From positions 26,536,001 through 26,600,000 of the forward strand of contig OZ024758.1 of NCBI GenBank assembly GCA_964016885.1: DNA of 64,000 bases. The letters run 5' to 3'. Of the stretch, positions 1-55,444 are shown one piece after another. Source of the DNA: Eledone cirrhosa (taxonomy: Eukaryota). Numbering within the stretch: the first letter of the stretch is position 1; the number at the start of each line of letters is the position of its first letter. The position numbers and the translations under genes are program-made. The notes under the pieces are model-generated. The model searched no databases. It worked only from the letters and a program-made list of their open reading frames with translations, and was not told where the DNA came from.

Positions 1-362
1 ATTTTGCAGTTTAGATGAGTAGTAAAAGCATTAGCTGCATATTTTATAAATCTATTCTTTTAATAAATGACTGACAAGTATTTCAGAAAGCTGGTACAAT
101 GCAGTAGAAATATATAAAGGGCAAAGGATGACAAATAAAATAAAACAAAACAAAAATAATGTTGTTTTTTTTTTATCCGGTATATTTTTATCCGGTATAT
201 TTCAGGGTTATACCATCTTGTCAAATGCAAAAACAAAAATGCCTCTGGCTTGGGATGACTAATGGCTTAGTAGTGGAATTTGGTGGATGAAATAAAATAC
301 TCTGGAAGCCTATTGCACATGTGTGTGTGTGTGTGTGTGGATGGATAGTCAGACAGATACAT

Positions 363-702
363 ATCATCATTTTCATCATTTTACGTCCGCTTTTCCCTGC
401 TTGCAAAGGTGGGACAGGAACTGACTCTGGCTTGATTTCTACAGCTGGATGTCCTTCCTAACACCAACCTCATTTACAGTGAGTGCTGGGTGCTTTTTTG
501 CCGTGGCACCTCCACGACCACTTTGCAGTGGAATGATAGGGACCCTCAGTCCCTATCATCTCATTTCTACAGCTGAGTAAACTGGAGCAATGTGAAATAA
601 AGTGTCTTGCTCAAGGAAACAACACATCACCCGGTCTGAGAATTGAACTCACAACCTTTCGATTGCAAGGTCAATGCTCTAACCACTAAGCCATGTGTCT
701 CC
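363..702 (-). mobile_element. tRNA-derived CORE-SINE ('family B') with RTE-like 3' tail
   Basis: Minus strand reads GGAGACACATGGCTTAGTGG (A box) ... GAGTTCAATTC (B box), then a MIR-CORE-like segment (CCTTGAGCAAGACACTTT...CAGTTTACTCAGCTGTAGAAATG) and a (GAT)n-like tail. More than 10 near-identical copies in the window. Confidence 0.85.
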
Positions 703-822
703 ATATGTCTATGTATATAAATGTCCTTTGTTTGTGTCTATATTTACCAGTGTAAACCAGTGGGTCGAGTCATGTCCCTTCAGTCAAAACAGTAACTTAG
801 CAATTTCATAAATACAGATTAT

Positions 823-1258
823 CCCTTTAATGTTCAAACCGGCCAAAACCGGCCAGAATTCTCTACCTCTTTCTGTTGAAACTGGCTGTAACTGGTCACT
901 CAAACTGATGTTAAGGTATTGTTCTCAAAATAAATACTTTCAAAATCTCATAGATTCGATATTATGTGAGATAATTATGCGAGGTAAAGCCTTTACCATG
1001 AAAATATAATAATATATATAGAGTAATGTGAATGCTAAAGGGTTAACCCTTTAACATTTACATTACTCTATATATATTATTATATTTTCATGGTAAATTA
1101 CATAATTATCTCAAATTGTATCGAATCTATGAGATTTTGATATTATTTACTTTGAGAACAATACCTTAACATCAGTATGAGTGGCTAGTTACAGCTAGTA
1201 TGAACAGAAAGAGGCGAGAGAATTCTGGTTAGATGCAGTCAGTTTAAATGCTAAAGGG
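823..1258. mobile_element. Two inverted piggyBac-like MITEs (~210 bp each) sharing a TTAA at 1043-1046
   Basis: Termini CCCTTTA...TAAAGGG abut TTAA. Same family recurs many times in the window. Confidence 0.75.
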
Positions 1259-1636
1259 TTAATAAGATTGGTATCGGATTAAAATACTGGGCTCAATATA
1301 GACTGACTGAAATTCCTTAAAGGTTGTGCCCCAGCATGGCCATAGGCCAATGTCTTAAACCAGAAAAAAATAAAGGATAAAAGAATTATGAACATGAGTA
1401 GACAAAGAAGGATTTCTGATTTAACAAGATATCCATTTAACATATCTAGCAATTTGAAAGAAAAATATTGCTTGTTTTCTCTCTACAATCACCTAATTAG
1501 CTATATCTTAACTTTTTCATCAAGCACTAATTAGTCGTAATTAATTGTTTCTACTTTAGGCACAAGGCCAGCAATTACCCAGTGCATTACTGGTACTTTA
1601 TTTTATCGACCCCGTAAGGATGAAAGGCAAAGTCAA

Positions 1637-2135
1637 CCACTTAACAGGGTGGGCTGGGTGTATTTTGTTACTACCACTTAACAGGGTGGGCTGGATGTAT
1701 TTTGTTGTAGCACCAGCACTACCACTTAACAGGGTGGGCTGGATGTGTTTTGTTGTAGCACCAGCACTACCACTTAACAGGGTGGGCTGGGTGTATTTTG
1801 TTGTAGCACCAACACTACCACTTAACAGGGTGGGCTGGATGTGTTTTATCATGGCACCAGCACTACTACTTAACAGGGTGGGCTGGGTGTATTTTGTTGT
1901 AGGAACAGCACTACCACTTAACAGGGTGGGCTGGGTGTGTTTTGTTGTAGCACCAGCACTACCACTTAACAGGGTGGGCTGGATGTGTTTTGTTGTAGCA
2001 CCAGCACTACCACTTAACAGGGTGGGCTGGGTGTGTTTTGTTGTAGCACCAGCACTACCACTTAACAGGGTGGGCTGGGTGTGTTTTGTTGTAGCACCAG
2101 CACTACCACTTTATGGGGGTGGGCTGGGTGTGTTT
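1637..2135 (+). repeat. 48-bp minisatellite (~10 units) related to the SINE internal module
   Basis: Unit ACCACTTAACAGGGTGGGCTGGRTGTGTTTTGTTGTAGCACCAGCACT; 16-aa periodicity in the ORF track. Confidence 0.9.
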
Positions 2136-2681
2136 TATTGTGACACCACCACTTTACAAGGTGGACTGGGTATGCTTTACCGTGGTTGTCACATGACCAT
2201 CTAGACTGGAGACTTTTTTCAGACCCTATAATATCTCAGACACTGTAACCTCCAGTCTCTCACCATTTTTACTTTTAGTGTCAGTGTTTCTACTGGTCGA
2301 CATGTTTTGTAATATGATACCGAAGTAAAATGGCTAAAGAGATAATGGTCTTCGAAGGTAATTCTACTGCAGGTATTTCATTGTGTATATGAGAAGTACA
2401 TTTAAACTGGCCCTATCTGGCCAGAATTCTCTCACCACTTTCTGTTCAAACCGGCTGTAACTAGCTGCTCATACTTATGTTATGGTACTGTTCTCAAAAT
2501 AAATATCAAAATCTCATAGATTCGATATTATGTGAGATAAAGTGTTTACCGTGAAAATACAATAGTATTTATAGAGTAATGTAAAGGGTTAATACAAATA
2601 AAACACCATATATGAAAGACTATATCATCATAATCATCATCATCATCATTTAACATCCATCTTCCTCGTTAGCATGGGTTG

Positions 2682-2719
<38 letters not shown>

Positions 2720-4444
2720 TTTAAATTTTTTTTTTTTTAACTGTTTGTCAATCAATGATAAACATTGATTGCCAGCTAAATTAATTATAGAAATATAAAA
2801 TATACAGAAGCGAAAACCAACCCCAAACCAACAGTGAGTGTGTTTTATTACATATTTCTGGCAATATTATAACAATATGACTCTCCCCAAATATAACAAC
2901 ACTTAACCCTTTAGCATTTAAACTGGCCATAACCAACCAGAATTCTCTCACCTCTTTCTGTTCAAACTGGCTGTAACTAGCCACTCATACTTATGTCAAG
3001 GTATTGTTTTCAAAATAGATAATACCAAAACCTCATAGATTCAATATTATGTGAGGTAAAGCCTTTTCCGTGAAAATACAATAGTAAATATTGAGAAATG
3101 TAAATGTTAATTCTATCTGCCACCATTCACCTAGAAGGGTAGAAATAAAGTAACAAATGATTGTGTTGTTTATGATAGACTGGCATTCAACCCAAGAGAA
3201 GATATCTCTCTCCTCACCTCACCTTAGCACTATGAAACTTGAACTTAAAACTAACCTTCAAAATGTCCTGAAGGACATAAGAAATTTCCATTTAGTAATT
3301 CAAGCACAACATCTTCTTATCCATAGCATGGAGTAAACAAATACATGGGGTTGCGAAAACAATATCATGATGTGATATCATTTGCCTCAAGAATATTTGG
3401 AGGTCAAAGATAAATACTGGAAAAGTTTCTCTTTTCTTTTTTAAAACTATAGCGGAAATCTGCTACATAACAGCATAACATGTTGTTGTTGTTGTTGTTA
3501 TTGCTAGACAGGCATAACCAAATAAAACACCATACACCTTTCCAAGTAGTAGCACATCTACAATTAGAAGCTGTCTAGATATCACCAATGGGATAAAACA
3601 AGGAGATGAGAGAGAGATAGAATATTGCAGCAGCTGAATGTGTAGGAGCAGGGTGGATGAAAAAAGCTCAGTGAAACATCCAAACTTCACCAAAGTAAAC
3701 ACACAAACACACACGACTTTGGTAACAGATAGAAAAACAAAAGTAGTTTTACTAAAAAACAAAGTATTTTAATGAAACATAGATACAATAGTGAAAGAGA
3801 TAACATTTAATAAGGAAGATGCTGAAAGATGAAGAAGTGGGTGTGGAAAAATACTATATGGCACTTAACTAAACAAAACTGTAGTTGACTGATCACTTAT
3901 AGAAAAGAAACCTTTCTGATACAACATTGTAAAGCAACCACTTGGAAGCCCATATTAACATCTTGATTCTTAGCAACGAAAGATATAAATAGTGAATCAC
4001 TAATAATCAGGCATATTCAGACAGCTGCCATACATTGTACAGTGAAAAGACTATTATAGATTTCATCATTTTATTTTTTATTGCTGCAAATGCAGAAATT
4101 CATTTGCTAACATTATAAATAACATGTACAGACTCCCACCAATAAAACTTTTGTGTTGTCTTTTGTAAAAACAATATTATTTTTAACTATAGCACGATGG
4201 CCTTAGCTTGAGATGGCTAAAACAAACTAAAGAGTTGAAGAACTGACGTCAGTAGCTCTTTTGGAGAAATCTCTTTATTTGGTGTTCTGTTAGTAAGTAG
4301 GAAGAATGGAAAACAAGGAAAATAAAGCAACAAAAAGACATAACAACATCAGAAAATGCATAAGAGAACTCAAGGAGTAGGAACTGGCTGTTTCAGAACA
4401 GACAGAGAGAGAGAGAGAGATATATATATATATATATATATATG

Positions 4445-4660
4445 GTGAAGGCGTGTGGCTGAGTGGTTAGAGAATTGGATTCACAATCTTGAGATTGTGA
4501 GTTCGATTCCTGGACCGGGCGATGCGTTATGTCCTTGAGCAAGACACTTTATTTCACGTTGCTCCTTCTACCTGGAGTTGCGACCGATAGATAGTATTAG
4601 CAATTGGAAAGACCAACGGAAACATTGTTTCCTCGGTCCGATTTGATGAAAGTCGATCGA
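4445..4660 (+). mobile_element. tRNA/CORE-type SINE variant (other copies ~19633-19790 and ~49491-49755)
   Basis: TGGCTGAGTGG A box, GAGTTCGATTCC B box, TCCTTGAGCAAGACACTTT core, and a different 3' part shared with the other copies. Confidence 0.7.
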
Positions 4661-4925
4661 TCCTTTAATATATATATATATATATATATCCACAAAATAC
4701 AATATATATATATATATATTTCGTTTCTGAATTTGTTTAGCAAGATTCTTTATCTGAAAACGTGTGTTGAAACCGATATTGTTATGCCTTGGGAGGGTCA
4801 TGTTGCCAATAAGAAACACAAGCACCAGTTGCTTTCACTTCAATTTTATAAATTAAATTTATAAATTTAAGAATTTATAAATTTCCGGTTGGTTGGTTCC
4901 ATAACCGGACGGTTGTTCATATATT

Positions 4926-4968
4926 GTCAAAGTTCTTTCGTCACACATTCTGTGACCTCTTCAGTGAC
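4926..4968 (-). ncRNA. Minimal type I hammerhead ribozyme motif (left arm)
   Basis: Exact reverse complement of 5099-5141. Confidence 0.7.
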
Positions 4969-5098
4969 TGGTGATTCTTTTCTTTGTTTTGTGCCTTTCC
5001 TTTGTTCTGTCTTACACCATCTTGTTTTTCACACACAAAAACAAGATGGCGTAGGACAGAACAAAGGAGAGGCACAAAAACAAAGAAAAGAATCTCCA

Positions 5099-5141
5099 GT
5101 CACTGAAGAGGTCACAGAATGTGTGACGAAAGAACTTTGAC
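5099..5141 (+). ncRNA. Minimal type I hammerhead ribozyme motif (right arm)
   Basis: GUCA-CUGAAGAG-GUCACA-gaaug-UGUGAC-GAAA-G-aa-C-UU^-UGAC. Stem I GUCA/UGAC, 6-bp stem II, minimal stem III, predicted cleavage after 5137. Confidence 0.7.
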
Positions 5142-5287
5142 AATATATGAACAACCGTCCGGTTATGGAACCAACCAACCGGAAATTTATAAATTTAATT
5201 TATAATAAATTGGAGTGAAAGCAACTGGTGCGTGTGTTTCTTATTGGCAACATGACCCTCCCAAAGCATAACAATATATATATATAT

Positions 5288-5619
5288 ATCATTGTCATTT
5301 TATGTCCCCTTTTTCCCTGCTTGCAAGGGTGGGACGGGAACTGATTCTGGCTTGATTTCTACAGCTGGATGCCCTTCTTAACACCAACCTCATTTACAGT
5401 GAGTGCTGGGTGCTTTTTTTGCCGTGGCACCTCCACGACCACTTTGCAGTGGAATGATAGGAACCCCAGTCCCTATCATCTCATTTCTACAGCTGAGTAA
5501 ACCGGAGCAATGTGAAATAAAGTGTCTTGCTCAAGGAAACACATCACCCGGTCTGAGAATTGAACTCACAACCTTTCGATTGCAAGGCCAATGCTCTAAC
5601 CACTAAGCCATGTGCCTCC
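5288..5619 (-). mobile_element. CORE-SINE family B copy
   Basis: Near-identical to 363-702. Confidence 0.85.
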
Positions 5620-6078
5620 ATATATATACATATATATATATATTGTGGAGGATATATATATATATACATACAATATATATATATATATTGTGGAGGATAT
5701 ATATATATATATACAATATATATATATACAATATATATATATATTGTGGAGGATATATATATATACATACAATATATATACATATATATATATATATTGT
5801 GGAGGATATATATATATACATACAATATATATACATATATATATATATTGTGGAGGATATATATCATCATCATCATCATCATCAACGTTTAACGTCCGTG
5901 TTCCACGCTTGCATGGGTTTGGACGGGGGTAGTCCCACTTGAGGCAAGAGTGATTGTCTTGCTCGCATAGGACTGTCTGGCAGGTTTTCTACAGTTGGAT
6001 GCCCTTCCTATATATATATATATATATTGTGGAGGATATATATATATATATATATACAATATATATATATATTATGGA

Positions 6079-6121
<43 letters not shown>

Positions 6122-6294
6122 CAATATATATATATAGTGGAGGATATATATAAATACAATATATATATATATATTGTATTTATATATATATATATATAAA
6201 TACAATATATATATATATATTGTATTTATATATATATATATTGTATTTATATATATATATATATATATATAAATACAATATATATATATATTGT

Positions 6295-6339
<45 letters not shown>

Positions 6340-6360
6340 TATATAGTATTTTGTGGAGGA
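5620..6360. repeat. Compound (TA)n microsatellite with recurrent TTGTGGAGGA, interrupted by a SINE 3' fragment (~5863-6009)
   Basis: Direct reading. Confidence 0.9.
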
Positions 6361-6639
6361 TGAGAAGGAGGGTATGAATATACTAAGGAGTTGAGTTTAG
6401 GGAAGGGAAGATGGGGAAACACAGTTTGTGTAGGTGTGTGAGGGGGTGTGGTGTGAGGGGTGGGTCTGAGTGTATGGGGGGAGAGGGTGAGGGGAGTCTA
6501 TGTGTGTGTATGAGGAGTGGTCTATGTGTGGGTCTAAATGTATGGGAGGGGGAGTCTGTATGTGTGTGAGGGGTTTATCTCTGTGCATGTGGAGGTCTCT
6601 GTGTATGGAAGGGGGGGGGGGGGGTCTGTATGTGTGTGA

Positions 6640-7308
6640 GGGGAGTCTCTGAGTGTGTGTGTGTCTGTGTGTATCTGTGTGTGTGTGTGTGTGAGGGGAG
6701 TATCTGTGTATCTGTGTGTGTGTGGGGGGGGTCTCTGTCTGCATATGGGTCTGTGTGTGTGTGGGAGGGGGATTTCTGATTCTGTGTCTGTGTGTCTGTG
6801 TGTGTGTGTGTATGAATGTGTGTCTGTTTCTGTGAGTGTCTGTCTGTCTGTGTGTGTCTCTGTCTGTCTGTCTGTGTGTGTGTGTATGTCTGTCTGTGTG
6901 TGTATGTCTGTCTGTGTATGTCTGTCTGTGTGTGTCTCTGTCTGTCTGTGTGTGTCTGTCTGTGTGTATGTCTGTCTGTGTGTCTGTGTGTGTCTGTGTG
7001 TGTGTATGTCTGTCTGTGTGTGTGTATGTCTGTCTGTGTGTGTGTATGTCTGTCTGTCTGTGTGTGTCTCTGTCTGTCTGTGTGTGTCTCTGTCTGTCTG
7101 TGTGTGTCTCTGTCTGTCTGTGTGTGTGTCTGTCTGTCTGTCTGTCTGTGTGTGTGTATGTCTGTGTGTGTGTGTCTCTGTGTGTGTCTCTGTTTGTCTG
7201 TCTGTGTCTGTGTGTGTGTCTGTCTGTCTGTGTGTGTGTCTGTCTGTCTGTCTGTCTGTCTGTGTCTCTGTGTGTGTATGTCTGTCTGTGTGTGTGTGCA
7301 CACACACA
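6640..7308. repeat. Compound (GT)n/(GTCT)n microsatellite
   Basis: Direct reading. Source of the HTQTDR/VCLS ORFs. Confidence 0.95.
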
Positions 7309-7794
7309 GGACCGTATGTTGATGAGCTTGGTGAAGGTTTAGAAAATATGAGAGACTGGAGCGGAGGAGGTGAGATGATGTGAGATATTCAGTGATGAGG
7401 TTAATAATACACTAAACTATAAATATGAAAGAATGTAGATGAAATGTGGGGGGAAAAAACAAATAAAAATAACAGGTGGAGAAGAGGGGGGGGGGAGGAA
7501 GTAGGGTAAATAAACATAGTAATAGCATATAACATGAAGTAAGATGAATGAACAGTGCCAAAAGTTGAGGAAATTGTGTTATTTGAGTAAATGGACACCA
7601 GTAAGTAGGTGACCAGAGAAAGAAAACACTGCGAATGATGTATGAGATTATTAACCCTTTACTATTTAAACTGGGTCATATCCGGTCAAAGTTCTCTCAC
7701 TTCTTCTGTTGAAACCCCAGCCGGCCCGTAACTGGCCACTCATACTGATGTTTATGTATTGTTCTCAAAATAAATATCAAAATCTCGTAGAGTA

Positions 7795-9640
7795 GCCGTC
7801 ACGACAAAAAGCACCCTCTCCACACTGTAAAGTGGTCACGGAGGTGTCACAACAAAAAGCACCCAGTCCACACTGTAAAGTGGTCATGTAGGTGTCATGA
7901 CTAAAAGGACCCAGTCCACACTGTACAGTGTTTGTGTAGGTGTCACAGTAAAAAAGCACCCAGTCCACACTGTACAGTGTTTGTGTAGGTGTCACAGTAA
8001 AAAAGCACCCAGTCCTCACTGTAATGTATTCGTGTAGATGCCACAGTAAAAAAGCACTCAGTCCATACTGTAATGTGTTTGTGTAGGTGCCACAGTAAAA
8101 AAGCACCCAGTCCTCACTGTAATGTATTCGTGTAGATGCCACAGTAAAAAAGCACCCAGTCCACACTGTACAGTATTTGTGTAGGTGCCACAGTAAAAAA
8201 GCACCCAGTCCACACTGTAAAGTGGTCGTGTAGGTGCCACAGTAAAAAAGCACCCAGTCCACACTGTACAGTGTTTGTGTAGGTGCCACAGTAAAAAAGC
8301 ACCCAGTCCTCACTGTAATGTGTTTGTGTAGGTGCCACAGTAAAAAAGCACCCAGCCCATACTGTAATGTGTTTGTGTAGGTGCCACAGTAAAAAAACAC
8401 CCAGTCCACACTGTACAGTATTTGTGTAGGTGCCACAGTAAAAAAGCACCCAGTCCACACTGTAAAGTGGTCGTGTAGGTGTCACAGTAAAAAAGCACCC
8501 AGTCCACACTGTACAGCGTTTGTGTAGGTGTCACAGTAAAAAAGCACCCAGTCCACACTGTAAAGTGTTTGTGTAGGTGCCACAGTAAAAAAGCACCCAG
8601 TCCACACTGTACAGTATTTGTGTAGGTGCCACAGTAAAAAAGCACCCAGTCCACACTGTATAGTGTTTGTGTAGGTGCCACAGTAAAAAAGCACCCAGTC
8701 CACACTGTAAAGTGGTCGTGTAGGTGTCACAGTAAAAAAGCACCCAGTCCACACTGTACAGTGTTTGTGTAGGTGTCACAGTAAAAAAGCACCCAGTCCA
8801 CACTGTACAGTGTTTGTGTAGGTGTCACAGTAAAAAAGCACCCAGTCCACACTGTAAAGTGTTTGTGTAGGTGTCACAGTAAAAAAGCACCCAGTCCACA
8901 CTGTACAGTATTTGTGTAGGTGCCACAGTAAAAAAGCACCCAGTCCACACTGTACAGTGTTTGTGTAGGTGCCACAGTAAAAAAGCACCCAGTCCACACT
9001 GTACAGTGTTTGTGTAGATGTCACAGTAAAAAAGCACCCAGTCCACACTGTACAGTGTTTGTGTAGGTGCCACAGTAAAAAAGCACCCAGTCCACACTGT
9101 AATGTATTCGTGTAGGTGCCACAGTAAAAAAGCACCCAGTCCACACTGTAATGTGTTCGTGTAGGTGCCACAGTAAAAAAGCACCCAATCCACACTGTAC
9201 AGTGTTTGTGTAGGTGCCACAGTAAAAAAGCACCCAGTCCTCACTGTAATGTATTTGTGTAGATGCCACAGTAAAAAAGCACCCAGTCCTCACTGTAATG
9301 TGTTTGTGTAGGTGCCACAGTAAAAAAGCACCCAGTCCACACTGTACAGTGTTTGTGTAGGTGCCACAGTAAAAAAGCACCCAGTCCACACTGTACAGTG
9401 TTTGTGTAGGTGCGACAGTAAAAAAGCACCCAGTCCTCACTGTAATGTATTCGTGTAGATGCCACAGTAAAAAAGCACCCAGTCCACACTGTAAAGTGGT
9501 CGTGTAGGTGCCACAGTAAAAAAGCACCCAGTCCACACTGTAAAGTGTTTGTGTAGGTGCCACAGTAAAAAAGCACCCAGTCCACACTGTAAAGTGTTTG
9601 TGTAGGTGCCACAGTAAAAAAGCACCCTGTACTCACTGTA
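7795..9640 (-). repeat. 49-bp minisatellite (~38 units) of the SINE internal module, ending in a SINE 3' part (to ~9807)
   Basis: Unit CACAGTAAAAAAGCACCCAGTCCACACTGTACAGTGTTTGTGTAGGTGC, followed by GTTAGGAAGGACATCCAGCTGTAG and a GAT tail. Confidence 0.92.
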
Positions 9641-9829
9641 AATGAGGTTGGTGTTAGGAAGGACATCCAGCTGTAGAAACAAAGCCAAATCAGTTCTGTA
9701 TGAGCAAGACATGGTCAACTGACCTGACATTGGCTACAACAGGACAACTCGTCTAACCCATACTTGTGTGGAAACATGGACATAAAATGAAATGATGATG
9801 GTGATGAAAGCCTTTACCATGAAAATATA

Positions 9830-9992
9830 ATTATTTCTACTTTTGGCACAAGGCCAGCAATTATTCCAGTGTATTACTGGTACTTTATTTTATCGACCCC
9901 CGTAAGGATGAAAGGCAAAGTTAACCTCGGCGGGATTTGAACTCAGAATGGTAAGGGCCGTAACTCTATGCTTGGCGTCCGACCCTCTACTC
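9830..9992 (-). mobile_element. tRNA-derived SINE ('family A')
   Basis: B box GAGTTCAAATCC on minus; flanked by duplicated TACCATGAAAATATAA. Roughly 20 copies or fragments in the window. Confidence 0.8.
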
Positions 9993-10010
9993 TCTACCAT
10001 GAAAATATAA

Positions 10011-11456
10011 TCTACTTATATATATAACCAGCAATTTCTCTGTCTGTCTGTCCGACAGTGGAAACACGTGCGTAGAGAGAGAGTGAGAGTGAAAGAAAGA
10101 GACAGACTACGAGAGGGGGAGAGAGGGAGAGTGAATAGACGCTAAAACACGTGCTACAGAAACATTACCTTCCCCTCTCCACTGACTTTGGTCACTGAGG
10201 CCGAGGGAATCGCGCTGAGCGCGTCATAATGACGTAATGCAGACAGCCAGACATACAGACAGATATTATAAGGGCGCAACGTTATATCTATGTATCTATC
10301 TAAAAAGAAAGACTAAGAATTATATAGAGAGAACGCTAAATCGCCTAATGCGGTCCCTAGGGCATTGAAAATTTGAAATAATTTTTGCTCAAAAAACTCA
10401 CAGGACCATAATTATTACATGTCTAAAGTTTGAAAACAATCGGTTGGATGGTTCTCAAGTTTTAGTGAGCTGACAGACAGACAGACATTCTCTGTTTTAG
10501 ATATATAGACTAGCAGAAAACCGCCCCCCCGGGTGGTTTTCTGCTAGTCTATATATATAAAACTGAGGATGTCTGTCTGTGTGTGTGTGTGTGTGTGTGT
10601 GAGTTTGAATCCCTAAAACTCGAGAACCACCCAACCGACTGTTTTCAAACTTTACACGTCTTCTGAGCAAAAAAAATTTCAAATTTTCAATGCCCTAGGG
10701 ACCGCATTAGGCGATTTAGCGACCTCTCTTTATAATTCTTAGTCTTTCTCTTTTTAGATAGATACATACATATAACGTCGTGCCCTTATAATGTCTGTCT
10801 GTATGTCTGGCTGTCTGCATTACGTCACTTCCCTGAGGATGTGTGTGTGTGTGTGTGAGTTTGAATCCCTAAAACTCGAGAAGTACCCAACCGATTTTTT
10901 TCAAACTTTACATGTGTATTACTTATGTTTTAGGGAGTGTTATGCACATAAAAATTCAACATTTTGATCTCCTAGGGCCCGCAATAGGTGAAAAACTGCG
11001 TTTTTAAAGCTTTTTAGGTTTTTATTTAGGTATTACGTCAGACCAATTTCCTTGATATTGTAACTATTTATTAGTCAGTCTCTTCTTCATACCGTGAGCA
11101 AAGAAAATCCAACTTTTTTATGGCCTAGGGCCCGCATTAGGTGAAAAACTTCATTTTTTTCAGCTTTTTAGAGCTTTTTGGAAGTGTTACGTCTAGCCGA
11201 TTTTCCCGAAATTTCAAGGCAATTAAGCACATAAAAAAAATTCATTTTCTTGATCCCCTAGGGCCCGCATTAGGTAAAAACCTGCATTTTTCCTGCTTCA
11301 ACTAGGAAAATCTTAAAGACTATCTAGCCATCAGAGTATTTGGTTTATTTTCTTTACATCTTGTCCAGGCATGCAGTTTTTCCACAATTAGGTCTCAATT
11401 AGGTCTCCCGCGTCCCAAAATACCTTATCCCGTGCAACGCCGGGTACCACTGCTAG
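10011..11456 (+). mobile_element. Non-autonomous Helitron
   Basis: 5' TCTACTTATATATATAA; 3' hairpin CCCGTGCAACGCCGGG followed by CTAG. Inserted at A^T inside a MITE (GAAAATATAA^TAGTAAATATAGAG) with no TSD. Confidence 0.8.
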
Positions 11457-11767
11457 TAGTAAATATAGAGTAACGTAAATGGTAAAGGATTAAAGTAAAA
11501 GAGTTAAGACTAAGTAGTTTGGTAAAGAATATAAGACAGTGTAAATATTGTGTGTAATGAGGATTAACTTATATTAAGAGTAAAGTGGAGTAGACTGTTG
11601 ACAATTACATAAACAGGGTGGTGTCAGTTTACTAATACAAAAATAAAAGCATGACTTTAATAAAGGTGTGGAAAATTTAGTGAGCCAATAAAAGAAAATG
11701 TGTTGGTGTGAAGAGAAGTCTTAAATAGGTGAAATAAAATTAGCAAGAAAGTAAACAGAAATAGCAA

Positions 11768-12108
11768 TCATCATCATCATCATCGTTTAACATTCATATT
11801 CCACGCTTGCATGGGTTTGGATGGGAGTTTTCCCACTTGAGGCAAGAGTGGTTGTCTTGCTCGCATAGGACTGTCTGGCGGGTTTTCTACGGCTGGATGC
11901 CCTTCCAAACACCAACCACATTTACAGTGTGGACTGGGAGGTTTTTACCGTATTACCTACACGGCCACATTACAGCGTGGACTGTGTGTTTTTTTGTCGT
12001 GACACCTACACGACCTCATTTGTTTCGGCCTGGATGTTGTGGTACCAACATAACTTTACATTGAAAGGGGTGGTGAGGATGGGGTGGGGGTAGTGGGACG
12101 GGGGTGTA
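11768..12108 (-). mobile_element. SINE-like element with a C-rich, non-tRNA 5' end (also ~23190-23523 and ~29724-29885)
   Basis: Three copies share the TACACCCCC 5' boundary and the GGAAGGG-containing module; this copy and 23190-23523 also keep the (GAT)n tail. Confidence 0.65.
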
Positions 12109-12176
12109 TTTTGTTAGAGGTGCCTACTGACTGTAGTAGGTTTCACTTTGTACTTAGGTAAGGCGGGTCTTCTCTA

Positions 12177-12745
12177 TTACTGTGTAGCACCAAAGATCTC
12201 GGTCCAGTGACATTGTCTTGGAGAGGTGTGTGTGAGGTCGGAATTTATCAAGTCGTCCCAGGTTTTTCTGGGTCTGCCTACTCCGTGGCTACCGTCTATT
12301 TTGATTGCCCTGCACTTTTTTATACAGCTGTCGTCTTTCATGCGCATCACGTAACCATACCAACGTAGCCTTCTCTCGAGTAAACAACATCTGATCCCTC
12401 TTATTTCTAATTTCTCCCTTAGTTCGTTTATGCTTTGCCGTTCACGTATATTACTATTACACATCCAGCGGAGCATGCAAGCTTCGTTTCTCTCCAGTCT
12501 GCGTATATCCTCTGCACACAATGCCCAGGTCTCACTGCCATGTAACATTGCTGTTCGTATGCAGGCATCATACAGCCTGCCTTTCATTTTTAGAGAGAAC
12601 CCTTTAGCGGCCAATAGTGGTATAAGCTCTCTGAACTTTTTCCATCCCGTTCTGACTCTAGCTACTGTACTTTCAGAGCACCCTCCCCCACTGCTGATTT
12701 TATCACCCAGGTAACGGAAACTGTCCACTATTTCTATAGAACCAG
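12177..12745 (-). mobile_element. RTE-clade LINE 3' fragment (RT C-terminus)
   Basis: ORF FRYLGD...LHGSETW...RRLRWYGYVMRM...GRPRKTW, typical of the RTE ORF end. Confidence 0.85.
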
Positions 12746-13039
12746 TTAGTATTCTGTGGGCACTTGCTGCTACTTATTTCAGGAAAAAAGTAGTGCCTTC
12801 GACACCAGGAAATATGGTAAGTGTCAGTCATTTATTTTATAAGTAAAATAAGATGCTTGAATTTGTGTATGCAATTCCTATTTTCACTACTTCAATACTC
12901 AAAGCTGGAACAAAAGCCCCAAAAACTAAGTTGTCACCAAAAATTATAAATAAAAGCCCCAAAAACTAAGTTGTCACCAAAGATTATAAACGTCATTGCC
13001 GCCATCCACTAAATTAATTAATTTAAAATTTAAAAACGT

Positions 13040-13435
13040 AGCTATTTGGTATTCGTACCACCCCTTACCATGTATCTTGGGTAATGACTCGAAGAATACG
13101 ATTGCGAATACAAGCGACCAAAATAGGGTTCCTCCAAAGGGTCTTTGGAGTAACGTTACTCGATAGAGTGCATAGCTCGGAAATCCCAGATCACAGCTCT
13201 AATACTATGGACACGTGGTTAAAATGTCTCAGGAAAGAATCGCTTGACAGATTTTAAGGGCAAAACCAGCAGCTGGCAGGAGACCCAGAGGTTGATCCCG
13301 AGCAAGATGGTTGGATAAAATCCATGATCTTGGCTTGTCTCACTTGGGTATCCAGCTGGAGACAGTTGCTGACACGATCCACTTGAAGGAGTGTTTGAGG
13401 ACTCTGCTCCAACGACCTTCACAAGAATAAGTGGA
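13040..13435 (+). mobile_element. Degenerate RTE (Expander/Rex3-like) 3' fragment; related copies ~37100-37800 (+) and ~62025-62228 (-)
   Basis: Frameshifted YGHVVKMSQERIA..RRPR motif; mutual nucleotide similarity among the copies. Confidence 0.6.
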
Positions 13436-13534
13436 CAAACAAGAAGTAGCAGCTATGTAATTACATACAGCTGAAACATTATAGTTCTATTTAGTTGTAT
13501 TGTAATAGGTTTTATTTTTCAATATCAATTCATT

Positions 13535-14890
13535 TTCATCATCATCATCATCTTACGTCCGCTTTTCCCTGCTTACAAGGGTGGGACGGGAACTGATTCT
13601 GGCTTGATTTCTACAGCTGGATGCCCTTCCTAACACCAACCTCATTTACAGTGAGTGCTGGGTGCTTTTTTGCCGTGGCACCTACACGACCACTTTGCAG
13701 TGTGGGCTGGGTGCTTTTTTGCCGTGGCACCTCCACGTCCACTTTACAGTGTGGGTTGGGTGCTTTTTTGCCGTGGCACCTCCACGTCCACTTTACAGTG
13801 TGGGCTGGGTGCTTTTTTGCCGTGGCACCTCCACGTCCACTTTACAGTGTGGGCTGGGTGCTTTTTTGCCGTGGCACCTCCACGTCCACTTTACAGTGTG
13901 GGTTGGGTGCTTTTTTGCCGTGGCACCTCCACGTCCACTTTACAGTGTGGGTTGGGTGCTTTTTTGCCGTGGCACCTCCACGTCCACTTTACAGTGTGGG
14001 CTGGGTGCTTTTTTGCCGTGGCACCTCCACGTCCACTTTACAGTGTGGGCTGGGTGCTTTTTTGCCGTGGCACCTCCACGTCCACTTTACAGTGTGGGCT
14101 GGGTGCTTTTTTGCCGTGGCACCTCCACGTCCACTTTACAGTGTGGGCTGGGTGCTTTTTTGCCGTGGCACCTCCACGTCCACTTTACAGTGTGGGCTGG
14201 GTGCTTTTTTGCCGTGGCACCTCCACGTCCACTTTACAGTGTGGGCTGGGTGCTTTTTTGCCATGGCACCTCCACGTCCACTTTGCAGTGTGGGCTGGGT
14301 GCTTTTTTGCCGTGGCACCTCCACGTCCACTTTACAGTGTGGGCTGGGTGCTTTTTTGCCATGGCACCTCCACGTCCACTTTACAGTGTGGGCTGGGTGC
14401 TTTTTTGCCGTGGCACCTCCACGTCCACTTTACAGTGTGGGCTGGGTGCTTTTTTGCTGTGGCACCTCCACGTCCACTTTACAGTGTGGGCTGGGTGCTT
14501 TTTTGCCGTGGCACCTCCACGTCCACTTTACAGTGTGGGCTGGGTGCTTTTTTGCTGTGGCACCTCCACGTCCACTTTACAGTGTGGGCTGGGTGCTTTT
14601 TTGCCGTGGCACCTCCACGTCCACTTTACAGTGTGGGCTGGGTGCTTTTTTGCTGTGGCACCTCCACGTCCACTTTACAGTGTGGGTTGGGTGCTTTTTT
14701 GCCATGGCACCTCCACGACCACTTTGCAGTGGACAGGGACCCCAGTCCCTATCATCTCATTTCTATAGCTGAGTAAACTGTAGCAATGTGAAATAAAGTG
14801 TCTTACTCAAGGAAACAACACATCACCCAGTCTGAGAATTGAATTCACAACCTTTCGATTGCAAGGCCAATGCTCTAACCACTAAGCCAT
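13535..14890 (-). mobile_element. Near full-length CORE-SINE B with an internal 49-bp minisatellite expansion (~13645-14730, ~22 units)
   Basis: SINE head and tail flank the unit CCACTTTACAGTGTGGGCTGGGTGCTTTTTTGCCGTGGCACCTCCACGT. Confidence 0.9.
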
Positions 14891-15344
14891 ATATATATAT
14901 GTGTGTGTGTATATAATATATATAGTAGAAGTAGTAGTTTCAACCTTTATAAATTCAATCTCACTTCAACTTTAAATGTCACAACAACCACACAAAAAAA
15001 ATACAGAAAGAAAGAAAGAAGAAAAAGGATAAATACTTATAATTTCAAGTCCCATTTCAACTGTAAATGTCACTACACCCATCGGAAAAAATACAGGAGA
15101 AATAATAAAAACCTTCTGTATCACATCAGAGTGTTTAAATTTTAAAAGAGAATAAATTGTATTCTATGATTTATTGAAAATGTTTTTTATATTGTTACTG
15201 AAAATACTGAAAACAGAGTAAAAATAAAAGCAAACATCATTTTCAGTAGATTTAATCCATAATATCTAAATAGATGATTTGATAAAAGGGAGGAAAAGAC
15301 TGAGTAGTTCTTGTGGTTGTTGTTTAGCCTTAAGTCTTGTTTAA

Positions 15345-15552
15345 CCCTTTAGCATTTACATTACTCTATATATACTAATGTATTTTCATGGTAAAGGCTT
15401 TACCTCTCATAATATCGAAACTATGAGATTTTGATGTTATTTATTTTGAGAACAATACCTTAACATCAGTATGAGCAGCCCATTACAACTGGTTTGAACA
15501 GAAAGATGTGATAGAATTCTGGCCAGATATGGCCGGTTTAAATGCTAAAGGG
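15345..15552 (+). mobile_element. piggyBac-like MITE
   Basis: TTAA-CCCTTTAGCATTTA ... TAAATGCTAAAGGG terminal inverted repeats. Confidence 0.75.
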
Positions 15553-15851
15553 TTGATTAACCCTTTAGCATTTACATTACTCCATATATACTATTGTATT
15601 TTCATGGTAAAGCCTTTATCTTACATAATATTGAAGCTATGAGATTTTGATATTATTTTTTTTTTTAGAACAATACCTTAACATCAGTATGAGTGGCCAG
15701 TTGCAGCCATCCACCAAAATTTCCAATCACCTACAATTTTTGGATCCGTTGTTCATCACCCACACAACAGTTGACATCGCCCTCTGGTGGCTGATATTAC
15801 CCAAACTGGGAAACCCTGGGTTAGATGAATAAAATCATTATAATTACTTAC

Positions 15852-15929
15852 TTATAATAATAATTTCTGTAGGGAGCTTGTAATACCCAACCAGTTTGCT
15901 TTCGAGATAATCCCATGAAATCCAGTGTC
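15852..15929 (-). CDS. MRPL18: Mitochondrial ribosomal protein L18 (uL18m), coding exon 3
   Basis: tgcAG|...|GTAAGT, phase 2/2. Encodes (R)TLDFMGLSRKQTGWVLQAPYRNYYY(K), matching the MRPL18 segment RNLE..ARK..GW....P.R.F. Confidence 0.85.
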   Translation of the reverse strand, partial: DTGFHGIISKANWLGITSSLQKLLL

Positions 15930-18140: not shown

Positions 18141-18240
18141 CTTGGGTTTCGGTTGTAGAACATAGGGTTTACAATATAGCCATCATTTGGACCCTTTGGT
18201 TTATCATCATCGGAGGTGACTGATCTTGACAAGTTTGACC
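18141..18240 (-). CDS. MRPL18: MRPL18 coding exon 2
   Basis: ttcAG|...|GTCAGT, phase 1/2. Encodes (G)SNLSRSVTSDDDKPKGPNDGYIVNPMFYNRNP(R); F.NRNPR is the MRPL18 signature. Confidence 0.88.
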
Positions 18241-27253: not shown

Positions 27254-27329
27254 CGGTTGAAATTGGCAATTGTTTTCGTATACTTAAAAGAGATACTGAG
27301 CGACGTAATGACCTTAGGTTCGCCGCCAT
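27254..27329 (-). CDS. MRPL18: MRPL18 coding exon 1 (mitochondrial targeting peptide)
   Basis: ATG GCG GCG start; MAANLRSLRRSVSLLSIRKQLPIST-G is Arg/Ser/Leu-rich with no acidic residues. Donor G|GTAAAG, phase 1, matches exon 2. Confidence 0.8.
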
Positions 27330-38497: not shown

Positions 38498-38629
38498 CAA
38501 GCCAATATAAAGCATATGAGCAGGGCCTAGTCACCTGATCAGTCTGGCCTCAGCAAGTAACAGTCATCTGACTCCTTCAAGCATGAAAAATAGACATTAA
38601 ATGGTGATAATGATGATGATGATTCATCA

Positions 38630-41600
38630 TTACTGGGTTCTTTTTGTTGTGATGCCTACAGGACCACTTTACAGTGTGGGCTGGGCGCTTTTTGCCACGT
38701 CACCATCACGACCACTTTACAGTGTGGGCTGGGCACTTTTTGCCATGTCACCATCACGACCACTTTACAGTGTGGGCTGGGCACTTTTTGCCGCCTCACC
38801 ATCACGACCACTTTACAGTGTGGGCTGGGCACTTTTTGCCATGTCACCATCACGACCACTTTACAGTGTGGGCTGGGCACTTTTTTCCGCCTCACCATCA
38901 CGACCACTTTACAGTGTGGGCTGGGCACTTTTTGCCATGTCACCATCACGACCACTTTACAGTGTGGGCTGGGCACTTTTTGCCGCCTCACCATCACGAC
39001 CACTTTACAGTGTGGGCTGGGCACTTTTTTCCGCCTCACCATCACGACCACTTTACAGTGTGGGCTGGGCACTTTTTTCCGCCTCACCATCACCACCACT
39101 TTACAGTGTGGGCTGGGCACTTTTTGCCATGTCACCATCACGACCACTTTACAGTGTGGGCTGGGCACTTTTTGCCATGTCACCATCACGACCACTTTAC
39201 AGTGTGGGCTGGGCACTTTTTGCCATATCACCATCACGACCACTTTACAGTGTGGGCTGGGCACTTTTTGCCATGTCACCATCACGACCACTTTACAGTG
39301 TGGGCTGGGCACTTTTTGCCATGTCACCATCACGACCACTTTACAGTGTGGGCTGGGCACTTTTTGCCATGTCACCATCACGACCACTTTACAGTGTGGG
39401 CTGGGCGCTTTTTGCCACGTCACCATCACGACCACTTTACAGTGTGGGCTGGGCACTTTTTGCCATGTCACCATCACGACCACTTTACAGTGTGGGCTGG
39501 GCACTTTTTGCCGCCTCACCATCACGACCACTTTACAGTGTGGGCTGGGCACTTTTTGCCGCCTCACCATCACCACCACTTTACAGTGTGGGCTGGGCAC
39601 TTTTTTCCGCCTCACCATCACGACCACTTTACAGTGTGGGCTGGGCACTTTTTGCCGCCTCACCATCACGACCACTTTACAGTGTGGGCTGGGCACTTTT
39701 TGCCATGTCACCATCACGACCACTTTACAGTGTGGGCTGGGCACTTTTTGCCGCCTCACCATCACGACCACTTTACAGTGTGGGCTGGGCACTTTTTGCC
39801 GCCTCACCATCACCACCACTTTACAGTGTGGGCTGGGCACTTTTTGCCGCCTCACCATCACGACCACTTTACAGTGTGGGCTGGGCACTTTTTGCCATGT
39901 CACCATCACAACCACTTTACAGTGTGGGCTGGGCACTTTTTGCCATATCACCATCACGACCACTTTACAGTGTGGGCTGGGCACTTTTTGCCATATCACC
40001 ATCACGACCACTTTACAGTGTGGGCTGGGCACTTTTTGCCATGTCACCATCACAACCACTTTACAGTGTGGGCTGGGCACTTTTTGCCTTGTCACCATCA
40101 CGACCACTTTACAGTGTGGGCTGGGCACTTTTTGCCGCCTCACCATCACGACCACTTTACAGTGTGGGCTGGGCACTTTTTGCCATGTCACCATCACGAC
40201 CACTTTACAGTGTGGGCTGGGCACTTTTTGCCGCCTCACCATCACGACCACTTTACAGTGTGGGCTGGGCACTTTTTGCCGCCTCACCATCACCACCACT
40301 TTACAGTGTGGGCTGGGCACTTTTTGCCGCCTCACCATCACGACCACTTTACAGTGTGGGCTGGGCACTTTTTGCCATGTCACCATCACGACCACTTTAC
40401 AGTGTGGGCTGGGCACTTTTTGCCATGTCACCATCACGACCACTTTACAGTGTGGGCTGGGCACTTTTTGCCATATCACCATCACGACCACTTTACAGTG
40501 TGGGCTGGGCACTTTTTGCCATGTCACCATCACAACCACTTTACAGTGTGGGCTGGGCACTTTTTGCCATGTCACCATCACAACCACTTTACAGTGTGGG
40601 CTGGGCACTTTTTGCCGCCTCACCATCACGACCACTTTACAGTGTGGGCTGGGCACTTTTTGCCATGTCACCATCACGACCACTTTACAGTGTGGGCTGG
40701 GCGCTTTTTGCCACGTCACCATCACGACCACTTTACAGTGTGGGCTGGGCACTTTTTGCCGCCTCACCATCACGACCACTTTACAGTGTGGGCTGGGCAC
40801 TTTTTGCCATGTCACCATCACGACCACTTTACAGTGTGGGCTGGGCACTTTTTGCCGCCTCACCCTCACGACCACTTTACAGTGTGGGCTGGGCACTTTT
40901 TGCCATGTCACCATCACGACCACTTTACAGTGTGGGCTGGGCGCTTTTTGCCACGTCACCATCACGACCACTTTACAGTGTGGGCTGGGCACTTTTTGCC
41001 ATGTCACCATCACAACCACTTTACAGTGTGGGCTGGGCACTTTTTTCCGCCTCACCATCACGACCACTTTACAGTGTGGGCTGGGCACTTTTTGCCATGT
41101 CACCATCACGACCACTTTACAGTGTGGGCTGGGCACTTTTTGCCGCCTCACCATCACGACCACTTTACAGTGTGGGCTGGGCACTTTTTGCCGCCTCACC
41201 ATCACCACCACTTTACAGTGTGGGCTGGGCACTTTTTTCCGCCTCACCATCACGACCACTTTACAGTGTGGGCTGGGCACTTTTTTCCGCCTCACCATCA
41301 CGACCACTTTACAGTGTGGGCTGGGCACTTTTTGCCATGTCACCATCACGACCACTTTACAGTGTGGGCTGGGCACTTTTTGCCGCCTCACCGTCACGAC
41401 CACTTTACAGTGTGGGCTGGGCACTTTTTGCCGCCTCACCATCACCACCACTTTACAGTGTGGGCTGGGCACTTTTTGCCTTGTCACCATCACGACCACT
41501 TTACAGTGTGGGCTGGGCACTTTTTGCCGCCTCACCATCACGACCACTTTACAGTGTGGGCTGGGCACTTTTTGCCATGTCACCATCACGACCACTTTAC

Positions 41601-44396
41601 AGTGTGGGCTGGGCACTTTTTGCCGCCTCACCATCACGACCACTTTACAGTGTGGGCTGGGCACTTTTTGCCATGTCACCATCACGACCACTTTACAGTG
41701 TGGGCTGGGCACTTTTTGCCGCCTCACCATCACGACCACTTTACAGTGTGGGCTGGGCACTTTTTGCCGCCTCACCATCACAACCACTTTACAGTGTGGG
41801 CTGGGCACTTTTTGCCATATCACCATCACAACCACTTTACAGTGTGGGCTGGGCACTTTTTGCCATGTCACCATCACGACCACTTTACAGTGTGGGCTGG
41901 GGACTTTTTGCCGCCTCACCATCACGACCACTTTACAGTGTGGGCTGGGCACTTTTTGCTGCCTCACCATCACAACCACTTTACAGTGTGGGCTGGGCAC
42001 TTTTTGCCATGTCACCATCACGACCACTTTACAGTGTGGGCTGGGCACTTTTTGCCATGTCACCATCACGACCACTTTACAGTGTGGGCTGGGCACTTTT
42101 TGCCATGTCACCATCACGACCACTTTACAGTGTGGGCTGGGCACTTTTTGCCATGTCACCATCACGACCACTTTACAGTGTGGGCTGGGCACTTTTTGCC
42201 GCCTCACCATCACGACCACTTTACAGTGTGGGCTGGGCACTTTTTGCCATGTCACCATCACGACCACTTTACAGTGTGGGCTGGGCACTTTTTGCCGCCT
42301 CACCATCACAACCACTTTACAGTGTGGGCTGGGCACTTTTTGCTGCCTCACCATCACAACCACTTTACAGTGTGGGCTGGGCACTTTTTGCCATGTCACC
42401 ATCACGACCACTTTACAGTGTGGGCTGGGCACTTTTTGCTGCCTCACCATCACAACCACTTTACAGTGTGGGCTGGGCACTTTTTGCCATGTCACCATCA
42501 CAACCACTTTACAGTGTGGGCTGGGCACTTTTTGCCGCCTCACCATCACGACCACTTTACAGTGTGGGCTGGGCACTTTTTGCCATGTCACCATCACAAC
42601 CACTTTACAGTGTGGGCTGGGCACTTTTTGCTGCCTCACCATCACAACCACTTTACAGTGTGGGCTGGGCACTTTTTGCCATGTCACCATCACAACCACT
42701 TTACAGTGTGGGCTGGGCACTTTTTGCCATGTCACCATCACAACCACTTTACAGTGTGGGCTGGGCACTTTTTGCCGCCTCACCATCACGACCACTTTAC
42801 AGTGTGGGCTGGGCACTTTTTGCCGCCTCACCATCACGACCACTTTACAGTGTGGGCTGGGCACTTTTTGCCATGTCACCATCACGACCACTTTACAGTG
42901 TGGGCTGGGCACTTTTTGCCATGTCACCATCACGACCACTTTACAGTGTGGGCTGGGCACTTTTTGCCATGTCACCATCACAACCACTTTACAGTGTGGG
43001 CTGGGCACTTTTTGCCATGTCACCATCACAACCACTTTACAGTGTGGGCTGGGCACTTTTTGCCATGTCACCATCACAACCACTTTACAGTGTGGGCTGG
43101 GCACTTTTTGCCGCCTCACCATCACGACCACTTTACAGTGTGGGCTGGGCACTTTTTGCCGCCTCACCATCACGACCACTTTACAGTGTGGGCTGGGCAC
43201 TTTTTGCCATGTCACCATCACGACCACTTTACAGTGTGGGCTGGGCACTTTTTGCTGCCTCACCATCACGACCACTTTACAGTGTGGGCTGGGCACTTTT
43301 TGCCATGTCACCATCACGACCACTTTACAGTGTGGGCTGGGCACTTTTTGCCGCCTCACCATCACGACCACTTTACAGTGTGGGCTGGGCACTTTTTGCC
43401 ATGTCACCATCACAACCACTTTACAGTGTGGGCTGGGCACTTTTTGCTGCCTCACCATCACGACCACTTTACAGTGTGGGCTGGGCACTTTTTGCTGCCT
43501 CACCATCACGACCACTTTACAGTGTGGGCTGGGCACTTTTTGCCATGTCACCATCACAACCACTTTACAGTGTGAGCTGGGCACTTTTTGCCGCCTCACC
43601 ATCACGACCACTTTACAGTGTGGGCTGGGCACTTTTTGCCGCCTCACCATCACGACCACTTTACAGTGTGGGCTGGGCACTTTTTGCCGCCTCACCATCA
43701 CGACCACTTTACAGTGTGGGCTGGGCACTTTTTGCTGCCTCACCATCACAACCACTTTACAGTGTGGGCTGGGCACTTTTTGCCATGTCACCATCACAAC
43801 CACTTTACAGTGTGGGCTGGGCACTTTTTGCCACGTCACCATCACGACCACTTTACAGTGTGGGCTGGGCACTTTTTGCCGCCTCACCATCACGACCACT
43901 TTACAGTGTGGGCTGGGCACTTTTTGCCATGTCACCATCACGACCACTTTACAGTGTGGGCTGGGCACTTTTTGCCATGTCACCATCACGACCACTTTAC
44001 AGTGTGGGCTGGGCACTTTTTGCCACCTCACCATCACGACCACTTTACATAGTGGGCTGGGCACTTTTTGCCGCCTCACCATCACGACCACTTTACAGTG
44101 TGGGCTGGGCTCTTTTTGCCATGTCACCATCACGACCACTTTACAGTGTGGGCTGGGCTCTTTTTGCCATGTCACCATCACAACCACTTTACAGTGTGGG
44201 CTGGGCACTTTTTGCCATGTCACCATCACGACCACTTTACAGTGTGGGCTGGGCACTTTTGCCGCCTCACCATCACGACCACTTTACAGTGTGGGCTGGG
44301 CACTTTTTGCCGCCTCACCATCACAACCACTTTACAGTGTGGGCTGGGCACTTTTTGCCATGTCACCATCACAACCACTTTACAGTGTGGGCTGGG
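38630..44396 (+). repeat. 48-bp minisatellite (~120 units, 5.8 kb) of the SINE internal module in NLE1 intron 4
   Basis: Unit CCACTTTACAGTGTGGGCTGGGCACTTTTTGCC(ATG/GCC)TCACCATCAC(G/A)A. Confidence 0.95.
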
Positions 44397-54629: not shown

Positions 54630-55149
54630 CTTGTTGTGAGTTCAATTCTCGGACCAGGTGATGTGTTGTGTCCTTGAGCAAGACACTTTATTTCACATTG
54701 CTCCAGTTTACTCAGCTGTAGAAATGAGATGATAGAGACTGGGGTCCCTATCATTCTACTGCAAAGTGGTCGTGGAGGTGCCACGGCAAAGAAGCACCCA
54801 GCCCACACTGTAAAATGGAAGTGTAGGCGCCACGGAAAAAAGCACCCAGCACTCCCTGTACTCACTGTAAATGAGGTTGGTGTTAGGAAGGACATCCAGC
54901 TGTAGAAACCAGGCCAAGATCAGTTCCCGTATGAGCAAGACAAGGTCAGCTGACTGGACACTGCCCACAACAGGACAACCCATCTAACCCATGCTAGCGT
55001 GGAAGGACGGACGTAAAACGGTGATGATGATGACTTGGCACTGCAGTGGCATCTAGAAAATATCTTGATTTATTTTATTAGTTCAAAAGAAGTAATTCTA
55101 TTAGCCTACTAACTTACTAGTGTTAGAACTTTTATACTTTATATATATA

Positions 55150-55444
55150 TTTCGTTTCTGAATTTGTTTAGCAAGATTCTTTATCTGAAATCGTGTGTTG
55201 AAACCGATATTGTTATACTTTGGGAGGGTCATGTTGCCAATAAGAAACACACGCATCAGTTGCTTTCACTTCAATTTATTATAATAAATTTATAATAAAT
55301 TTATAAATTTCTGGTTGTGGAACCAAGGAACCAACCAACCAACCAGAAATTTATAAATTTATAAATTTATTATAAGAAATTGAAGTGAAAGCAACTGGTG
55401 CGTGTGTTTCTTATTGGCAACATGACCCTCCCAAAGTATAACAA
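55150..55444. mobile_element. Second Penelope-like foldback copy, with shorter arms and no hammerhead
   Basis: Same tail and outer arm sequence as 4719-5277; ACTTTATATATAT duplicated on both flanks. Confidence 0.75.

Follow-up and report, generated by a model that had tools for sequence, protein, structure and literature searches.

Twin minimal hammerhead motifs in a head-to-head pair of Penelope-like element ends in an MRPL18 intron of Eledone cirrhosa

The stretch of DNA analysed here, termed the window, consists of 64,000 nucleotides of the Eledone cirrhosa genome (assembly GCA_964016885.1, contig OZ024758.1, positions 26,536,001 to 26,600,000). Its left part belongs to the minus-strand gene MRPL18, which encodes the mitoribosomal protein uL18m. 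Outside the window, 212 nt and ~4.8 kb to its left, two exons are matched by uL18m chains from the PDB (E 2e-7 and 2e-3), and three upstream exons within the window are mutually phase-compatible (Table 1). The Pfam L18p profile gave no match in a search of the genome, because the gene is split into exons; these were identified by the PDB sequence searches. The exon placement puts a long foldback in an intron of ~16 kb, with its antisense arm transcribed first. An earlier, sequence-only reading had presumed both this intronic location and this order of transcription, and both are borne out. A gene with an NLE domain (NLE1/Notchless-like) starts near 30.3 kb on the plus strand, and MRPL18 (27329, −) and this gene (~30300, +) are head to head, ~3 kb apart. 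The window also contains long repeat tracts at 1560-2200, 7780-9730, 13600-14770 and 38600-44500, which give rise to spurious open frames; the tracts at 1.6-2.2 and 7.8-9.7 kb have a repeat unit of 48-49 nt. Short inverted repeats at 10486-10571 and 1001-1088 display generic miRNA-like hairpin scores that are below gathering thresholds.

Table 1. Features of the MRPL18 intron foldback and its surroundings (positions within the window)
Feature	Position	Strand	Remark
Intron 3 of MRPL18/uL18m, in-window part	1..15851	-	holds the foldback; full length ~16 kb
(TA)n run, left end	4702..4719	.	likely insertion target; such a flank is found at nearly all family ends
Left arm, 5′-truncated Penelope-like copy (pLTR), long tailed 3′ end	4718..5029	-	from BLAST to family copies
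Tail of ~58 nt, left arm only	4718..4775	-	element ORF coding sequence, about codons 9-28
Element ORF start codon and first 28 codons, truncated, left arm	4718..4801	-
Identical hammerhead motif	4926..4968	-	sense in MRPL18 pre-mRNA; predicted cut 4930/4929
Right arm, 5′-truncated pLTR copy, short 3′ end	5030..5277	+
Minimal type I hammerhead motif	5099..5141	+	predicted cut 5137/5138
Element ORF start codon and first 8 codons, right arm	5252..5275	+
(TA)n run, right end	5274..5289	.	likely insertion target
MRPL18 exon 3	15852..15929	-	inferred from splice sites and phase
MRPL18 exon 2	18141..18240	-	inferred from frame and splice sites
MRPL18 first coding exon	27254..27329	-	inferred from frame and splice sites
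Second head-to-head foldback, same family, one tailed and one short end	55147..55444	.	without hammerhead

The two arms of the foldback meet at 5029/5030, and the right arm begins 7 nt further 5′ than the left. Their alignment has 7 substitutions over 240 bases and a further 15 gap columns (~3% divergence). The tail of the left arm is regarded as coding sequence because tandem units of the element read through it into a long open reading frame. A target site duplication is unreadable within the (TA)n runs, and contigs from four sequencing runs over 4400-5600 were swamped by repeat copies, none spanning the locus. Two tRNA-like SINE copies in opposite orientations flank the foldback at 4446-4528 and 5538-5620; these are 76% complementary, have a weak tRNA match and could lengthen the double-stranded RNA. 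The second foldback in the window is truncated 3′ of the hammerhead, hence motif-less, and serves as an internal control. It lies between WD-repeat exon-like frames at ~48270 and 61700, likely in an intron of the NLE gene.

At the RNA level, each arm carries the same 43-nt minimal type I hammerhead motif, at 5099-5141 (+) and 4968-4926 (−); the pair, its strands and its parts stand on rereading as the sequence-only reading gave them. Stem I is GUCA/UGAC (4 bp), and the core CUGAAGA plus one unpaired G is followed by stem II, GUCACA/UGUGAC with a 5-nt loop. The 3′ portion consists of GAAA, a minimal stem III (G-AA-C) and the triplet CUU. Thus the motif has the CUGANGA ... GAAA ... UH core with helices I and II that characterizes PLE (Penelope-like element) minimal type I hammerheads, as well as two further PLE hallmarks, an unpaired base between positions 9 and 10.1 (G5110) and the pair G10.1-C11.1 (G5111-C5127); numbering is after PMC4209133. 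G or U serves as the extra unpaired base across families. Position H17 of the plus-strand motif is 5137, in agreement with the 5′-OH end previously predicted at 5138; the minus-strand counterpart is 4929.

A descriptor scan found only these two motifs in the window and none in the preceding 10 kb, and the strict descriptor had no match in 200 shuffled windows. An Rfam search, proposed earlier as a check, did not bear out the motif: a scan of 1-12000 returned 65 matches at E≤10, with no hammerhead family among them. The folding energy of the motif is ordinary (z about −1). In the variant found in the window, loop 3 is AA and non-palindromic, the outer two pairs (15.2-16.2) being self-complementary, and position 17 is U. 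The predicted dimer duplex has +2.4 kcal/mol, versus −1.7 kcal/mol for the sequence termed subfamily B below. With its non-palindromic loop 3 and U at position 17, the window variant may be a weak ribozyme. The identity of the two copies needs no special cause, as the arms differ by few substitutions; at the arm divergence, 43 identical bases have a chance of ~28% (0.971^43, hand calculation). Nor are the copies independent evidence, since both arms belong to one inverted repeat.

The foldback arms belong to a very abundant family. With the right arm as query, the genome yields 1,536 candidates, of which the 40 scored have 95-100% identity. The exact 43-mer occurs 5,085 times, a 35-nt pattern that spans two subfamilies, A and B, 14,649 times, and a motif of the family 3′ end 32,134 times; the reversed-pattern control was 0 in each case. 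A reverse transcriptase (RT) fragment of the element gave 15,109 candidates. Most copies extend 5′ by variable lengths into the reading frame. Longer copies have one ORF with RT followed by GIY-YIG, and frames of 1098 and 1041 amino acids display YVDD and YIGET; this ORF was read in copies elsewhere in the genome, the window arms holding only its start. Pfam matches in the family ORF are RVT_1 (E 8e-4) and GIY-YIG (E 3e-4), both under curated cut-offs. A C-X4-C-X2-C linker upstream of GIY-YIG corresponds to the CX2-5CxxC feature of the Neptune and Nematis clades. These sequence features, as set out in the available part of PMC8557442, place the element among the C-terminal EN+ Penelope-like elements of Neptune/Nematis type. 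The family copies carry the motif in the pLTR, which supports the earlier assignment to the minimal type I hammerheads of Penelope-like pLTRs. Among 120 listed homologues the closest named one is an Octopus vulgaris protein (65% identity), and no named PLE reference is found among them. The ORF also has an Asn/Thr/His-rich low-complexity stretch before RT (loci L046, L047, L092), and similar N-rich inserts are described in the portion available of a report on rotifer Penelope elements (PMC3846280). No paper on this octopus PLE family was found in a search that lacked most subscription papers, supplements and Repbase entries, and the family could be catalogued already.

Subfamilies A and B differ at three hammerhead positions, all unpaired. 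Full-length subfamily B units of 4.05 kb are present in a tandem array (L092, G000:C4:94735000-94744999), where three motifs are ~4.05 kb apart (4,046 and 4,077 nt) and the examined unit is frameshifted. Such an arrangement could allow dimeric hammerheads to form in cis.

Long inverted repeats are also a property of MITEs, miRNA hairpin genes and long-read foldback artefacts, and the inner hairpin has weak matches to miRNA families in Rfam. These all fall far below gathering scores and amount to generic hairpin scores, and a miRNA identity was rejected. Both arms derive by truncation from a 4-kb RT element, their ends are unequal and they have diverged by 3%; this foldback layout is seen again at dozens of loci. 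On account of the arm differences and the family structure, a MITE, miRNA or artefact is excluded for all practical purposes.

Is the motif kept as a ribozyme? Among 107 family copies selected by BLAST similarity, variants common to at least four copies occur in 0/33 core and stem columns, 4/10 free columns and 25/159 other UTR columns (p 0.009 for core and stem versus other UTR). Rare changes are likewise fewer in core and stem (15/3,493 cells versus 135/16,779 in other UTR columns, p 0.017), and all catalytic core positions are the same in subfamilies A and B. Conservation of the core nucleotides, predicted by the sequence-only reading, is thus seen across lineages and not within subfamily A, where in copies also chosen by BLAST similarity the core decays like its flanks (8/487 versus 129/7018 cells, 1.6% versus 1.8%). 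Such decay is expected for dead copies and lends no support to function.

A looser hammerhead pattern (18,711 matches, control 6,264) uncovered a sister PLE family in which the UTR has diverged. Because these copies were selected by a pattern that demands the core, only stem changes are informative. The covariation, proposed earlier as a check of both stems, is displayed by stem II, where two of six pairs have changed on both sides and 97% of cells are paired, and is weak in stem I: 82% of cells are paired, and in outer stem I 11 of 18 rows are unpaired at one pair. The two compensatory pairs amount to about two evolutionary events. The sister family (L093, L097, L102, L111, L117; about 1493-1543) is abundant. 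Its extra base is U, its loop 3 comes in two variants, and it too has a short and a tailed end in (TA)n; a decayed fragment of it (68% identity) is located at 2731-2899 in the same MRPL18 intron. Loci L115 and L121 (about 1493-1546) represent two further families of hammerhead-like motifs, in which stem II is longer, loop 3 is different and the flanks are A+T-rich or (TA)n.

Constraint on the core across element lineages, together with the covariation of stem II with the sister family, makes it likely that the motif serves the element. These sequence comparisons suggest that the motif is likely under selection in active element lineages, and likely a dimer- or protein-dependent ribozyme of the tandem RNA of the element. 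Perhaps, instead, the window variant (loop 3 AA, CUU) is a degenerate, non-cleaving relic, with a motif that is only structural or protein-binding. The non-palindromic loop 3 and the absence of an Rfam hammerhead match fit such a relic; in addition, none of 28 mapped 5′ ends (a small sample) is truncated at the cleavage site, and hammerhead mutants are described as without effect on insertion in vitro in the part available of PMC11167929. We consider a relic possible but doubtful, since the catalytic core positions are all retained between subfamilies, the sister family shares loop 3 and triplet with the window variant, and the NUH rule accommodates U at position 17 (PMC2238771, available part).

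Head-to-head pairs are the commonest layout of the family. Of the first 100 of the 32,134 family ends, there are 30 head-to-head versus 2 tail-to-tail pairs within 4.5 kb; the first 100 hammerhead matches on contig 1 form 12 head-to-head pairs at ≤4.1 kb, 4 of them at ≤300 bp, and 2 tail-to-tail pairs. Rough scaling to the genome gives some 600 close twin motifs. Family copies stop at one of two places 59 nt apart, each followed by (TA)n, and the two kinds of end, termed short and tailed, are not paired at random. A BLAST count of 108 loci, which supersedes an earlier regex count (20 pairs, 6 unclassified), contains 40 head-to-head pairs, 37 of them classifiable, and 34 of the 37 combine a short with a tailed end (p 6e-8 against 0.5). 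Among the three pairs that break the rule, two have one side reading through into the ORF. A position-ordered sample of 10 pairs, one of them a read-through and one shared with the 108-locus count, has short plus tailed ends in 9/9. Overlapping or near-identical tandem or segmental copies were left out (12 loci in the subfamily A core-decay count, 14 in the 108-locus/107-copy count), and the motif families of L115 and L121 were removed from the pair count on account of poor alignment. Upstream of the motif, an apparent cluster of 5′ ends at ~60-85 nt was faint in the position-ordered sample (4/28) and was dropped. Two copies (L005 970-1121 and L017 482-714) have an internal inversion at the 5′ end, which we take to resemble the twin-priming inversions of LINE-1.

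The foldback is best explained, with a high degree of confidence, as two 5′-truncated PLE 3′ ends placed head to head between (TA)n runs, likely by one insertion event. Arm identity, copy numbers, the layout and the presence of one short and one tailed end are observed directly. In the proposed sequence of events, a (TA)n target would be cut and both strands would prime reverse transcription. One cDNA would initiate at the downstream start site in the ORF, giving the tailed end, and the other at the upstream start site, giving the short end; the two start sites would thus be used one per cDNA, and the truncated cDNA ends would be joined at 5029/5030. Such a scheme has precedents. Inverted pLTRs placed head to head, of which one end is tailed, have been described (PMC3846280, PMC8557442), the origin of PLE inverted insertions being given as unresolved in the part available of PMC8557442. 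In an Anolis element, reverse transcription starts at either of two sites within the ORF start, and these sites delimit the tail; both target strands are cut and extended, with a dimer predicted (PMC11167929, available part). We lean towards the generalization that most head-to-head insertions of the family are single events, in which a dimeric RT-endonuclease would prime both strands, one per start site.

Self-priming offers another route to an inverted arm. A single cDNA, or an antisense template, could snap back and prime its own inverted copy, the short end being set later by endonuclease cleavage. Self-priming has been proposed for the head-to-head palindromes of rotifer Penelope elements (PMC3846280, available part), and the nearly equal 5′ truncation points of both arms in several pairs, the window pair included, are in keeping with it. 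In 5/9 position-ordered pairs, however, it is the short-ended arm that extends further 5′, the tail being on its partner, and therefore neither arm is a fold-back copy of the other. The window arms are similarly non-nested: the left one carries the tail, and the right one extends 7 bases further 5′. Moreover, an indel separates the window arms, and its left-arm variant is common to 14-15/45 subfamily A copies, which suggests two templates, although the indel lies in an A+T repeat where slippage could account for it without a second template. Snap-back is thus unlikely as the general explanation, and is possible for nearly symmetric pairs.

The consequences for the hammerhead can be predicted from the hairpin itself. 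The 502-nt foldback has a predicted folding energy of −392 kcal/mol, and imposing the hammerhead fold on it costs 73 kcal/mol, a penalty that upholds the proposal of the sequence-only reading that the hairpin blocks the ribozyme fold. The closing pair of stem II has a negligible probability even in the prefix that ends at the motif; these are equilibrium, non-kinetic calculations on prefixes. The hammerhead at this locus is thus predicted to be inactive, being locked in a ~240-bp duplex and without a same-strand partner: the descriptor scan shows no second same-strand motif copy in the window or the preceding 10 kb. There may be little to silence in any case, since a minimal hammerhead on its own did not cleave in vitro in one study (PMC4209133) and needed the protein of the element for cleavage in another (PMC11167929), as described in the parts available of both. 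No paper on antisense silencing of PLE hammerheads was found in a search that lacked most subscription papers.

This raises the question of whether silencing protects the host transcript, as the sequence-only reading supposed. Selection might have kept the foldback for silencing a ribozyme that, left active, would cut MRPL18 pre-mRNA, as a tolerance filter or an adaptation. In favour of this, synthesis of the antisense arm precedes that of the sense arm, complete blockage of the hammerhead fold by the hairpin is predicted, and the gene product is a mitoribosomal protein; in addition, tandem retrozymes are reported to be under-represented in Xenopus introns (bioRxiv 10.64898/2026.07.22.740005, available part). 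Yet 42-44% of the Xenopus tandem retrozymes in that report are still intronic. Foldbacks form with or without the hammerhead, as in ten sampled pairs, where by arm extent the motif is covered by both arms in four, by one arm in three and by neither in three, and as in the motif-less foldback of the window. The arms have also drifted ~3% apart, lone minimal hammerheads are reported to be inactive or protein-dependent, and the same-strand partner is absent from the window and the preceding 10 kb. A protective role is therefore quite improbable and is unsupported here; it would be of real interest if shown genome-wide. Nor does the locus stand out, since every head-to-head pair, whichever way it is transcribed, yields its antisense arm first. 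Silencing is likely a neutral by-product of insertion, not a host-protecting device.

Comparison with known systems, within the portions of the cited sources that were available, reveals both shared and differing properties. PLE minimal hammerheads (PMC4209133) have the same short helix I, longer helix II and minimal helix III, the unpaired base between 9 and 10.1, the G10.1-C11.1 pair and the pLTR location, with thousands of solo copies and dual motifs on opposite strands, the latter reported 100-700 bp apart in Schistosoma; the window variant differs in its non-palindromic loop 3 and CUU triplet. Neptune/Nematis-type EN+ PLEs (Craig et al. 2021, PMC8557442; Arkhipova et al. 2013, PMC3846280) have a single RT-GIY-YIG ORF with an N-rich stretch and a CX2-5CxxC linker, 5′ truncation, partial tandems, an adjacent inverted 5′-truncated copy, a tail of ORF codons on one end and microsatellite targets. 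Their tail is 30-40 nt in length, versus ~58 nt in the Eledone family, and is optional or often one-ended, whereas the short/tailed pairing counted here is near-obligate. The Poseidon element PAc of Anolis (Frangieh et al. 2024, PMC11167929) is alike in its two 3′ ends within the ORF start, A+T-rich target and pLTR hammerhead; its hammerhead overlaps the start codon, while that of Eledone begins 153 nt upstream, and the Zn-finger-like linker of the Eledone family is absent from Penelope/Poseidon. Non-LTR retrozymes (bioRxiv 10.64898/2026.07.22.740005) resemble it in that a short, PLE-derived non-coding unit carries the type I hammerhead, but they are head-to-tail tandem units, whereas the truncated copies at this locus, which come from an autonomous element, form an inverted pair; with an inverted pair only and no third motif in the window, the locus does not have the tandem layout of a retrozyme. 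The locus is ordinary: a known kind of motif in a published layout, and one of thousands of copies.

The significance lies in the family. It is young and very abundant, with three natural hammerhead variants (loop 3, position 17) and a covarying sister family, and therefore offers material at hand for testing if PLE hammerheads depend on a dimer or on the protein of the element. The 34 short-plus-tailed pairs among 37 bear on how PLEs make inverted insertions. If most head-to-head insertions are indeed single events, the short/tailed pairing and non-nested arms would be a genomic record of twin priming that can be read at thousands of loci, the twinned hammerhead with its self-silencing hairpin would follow from twin priming, and hundreds of long double-stranded RNA hairpins would have been seeded in host transcripts.
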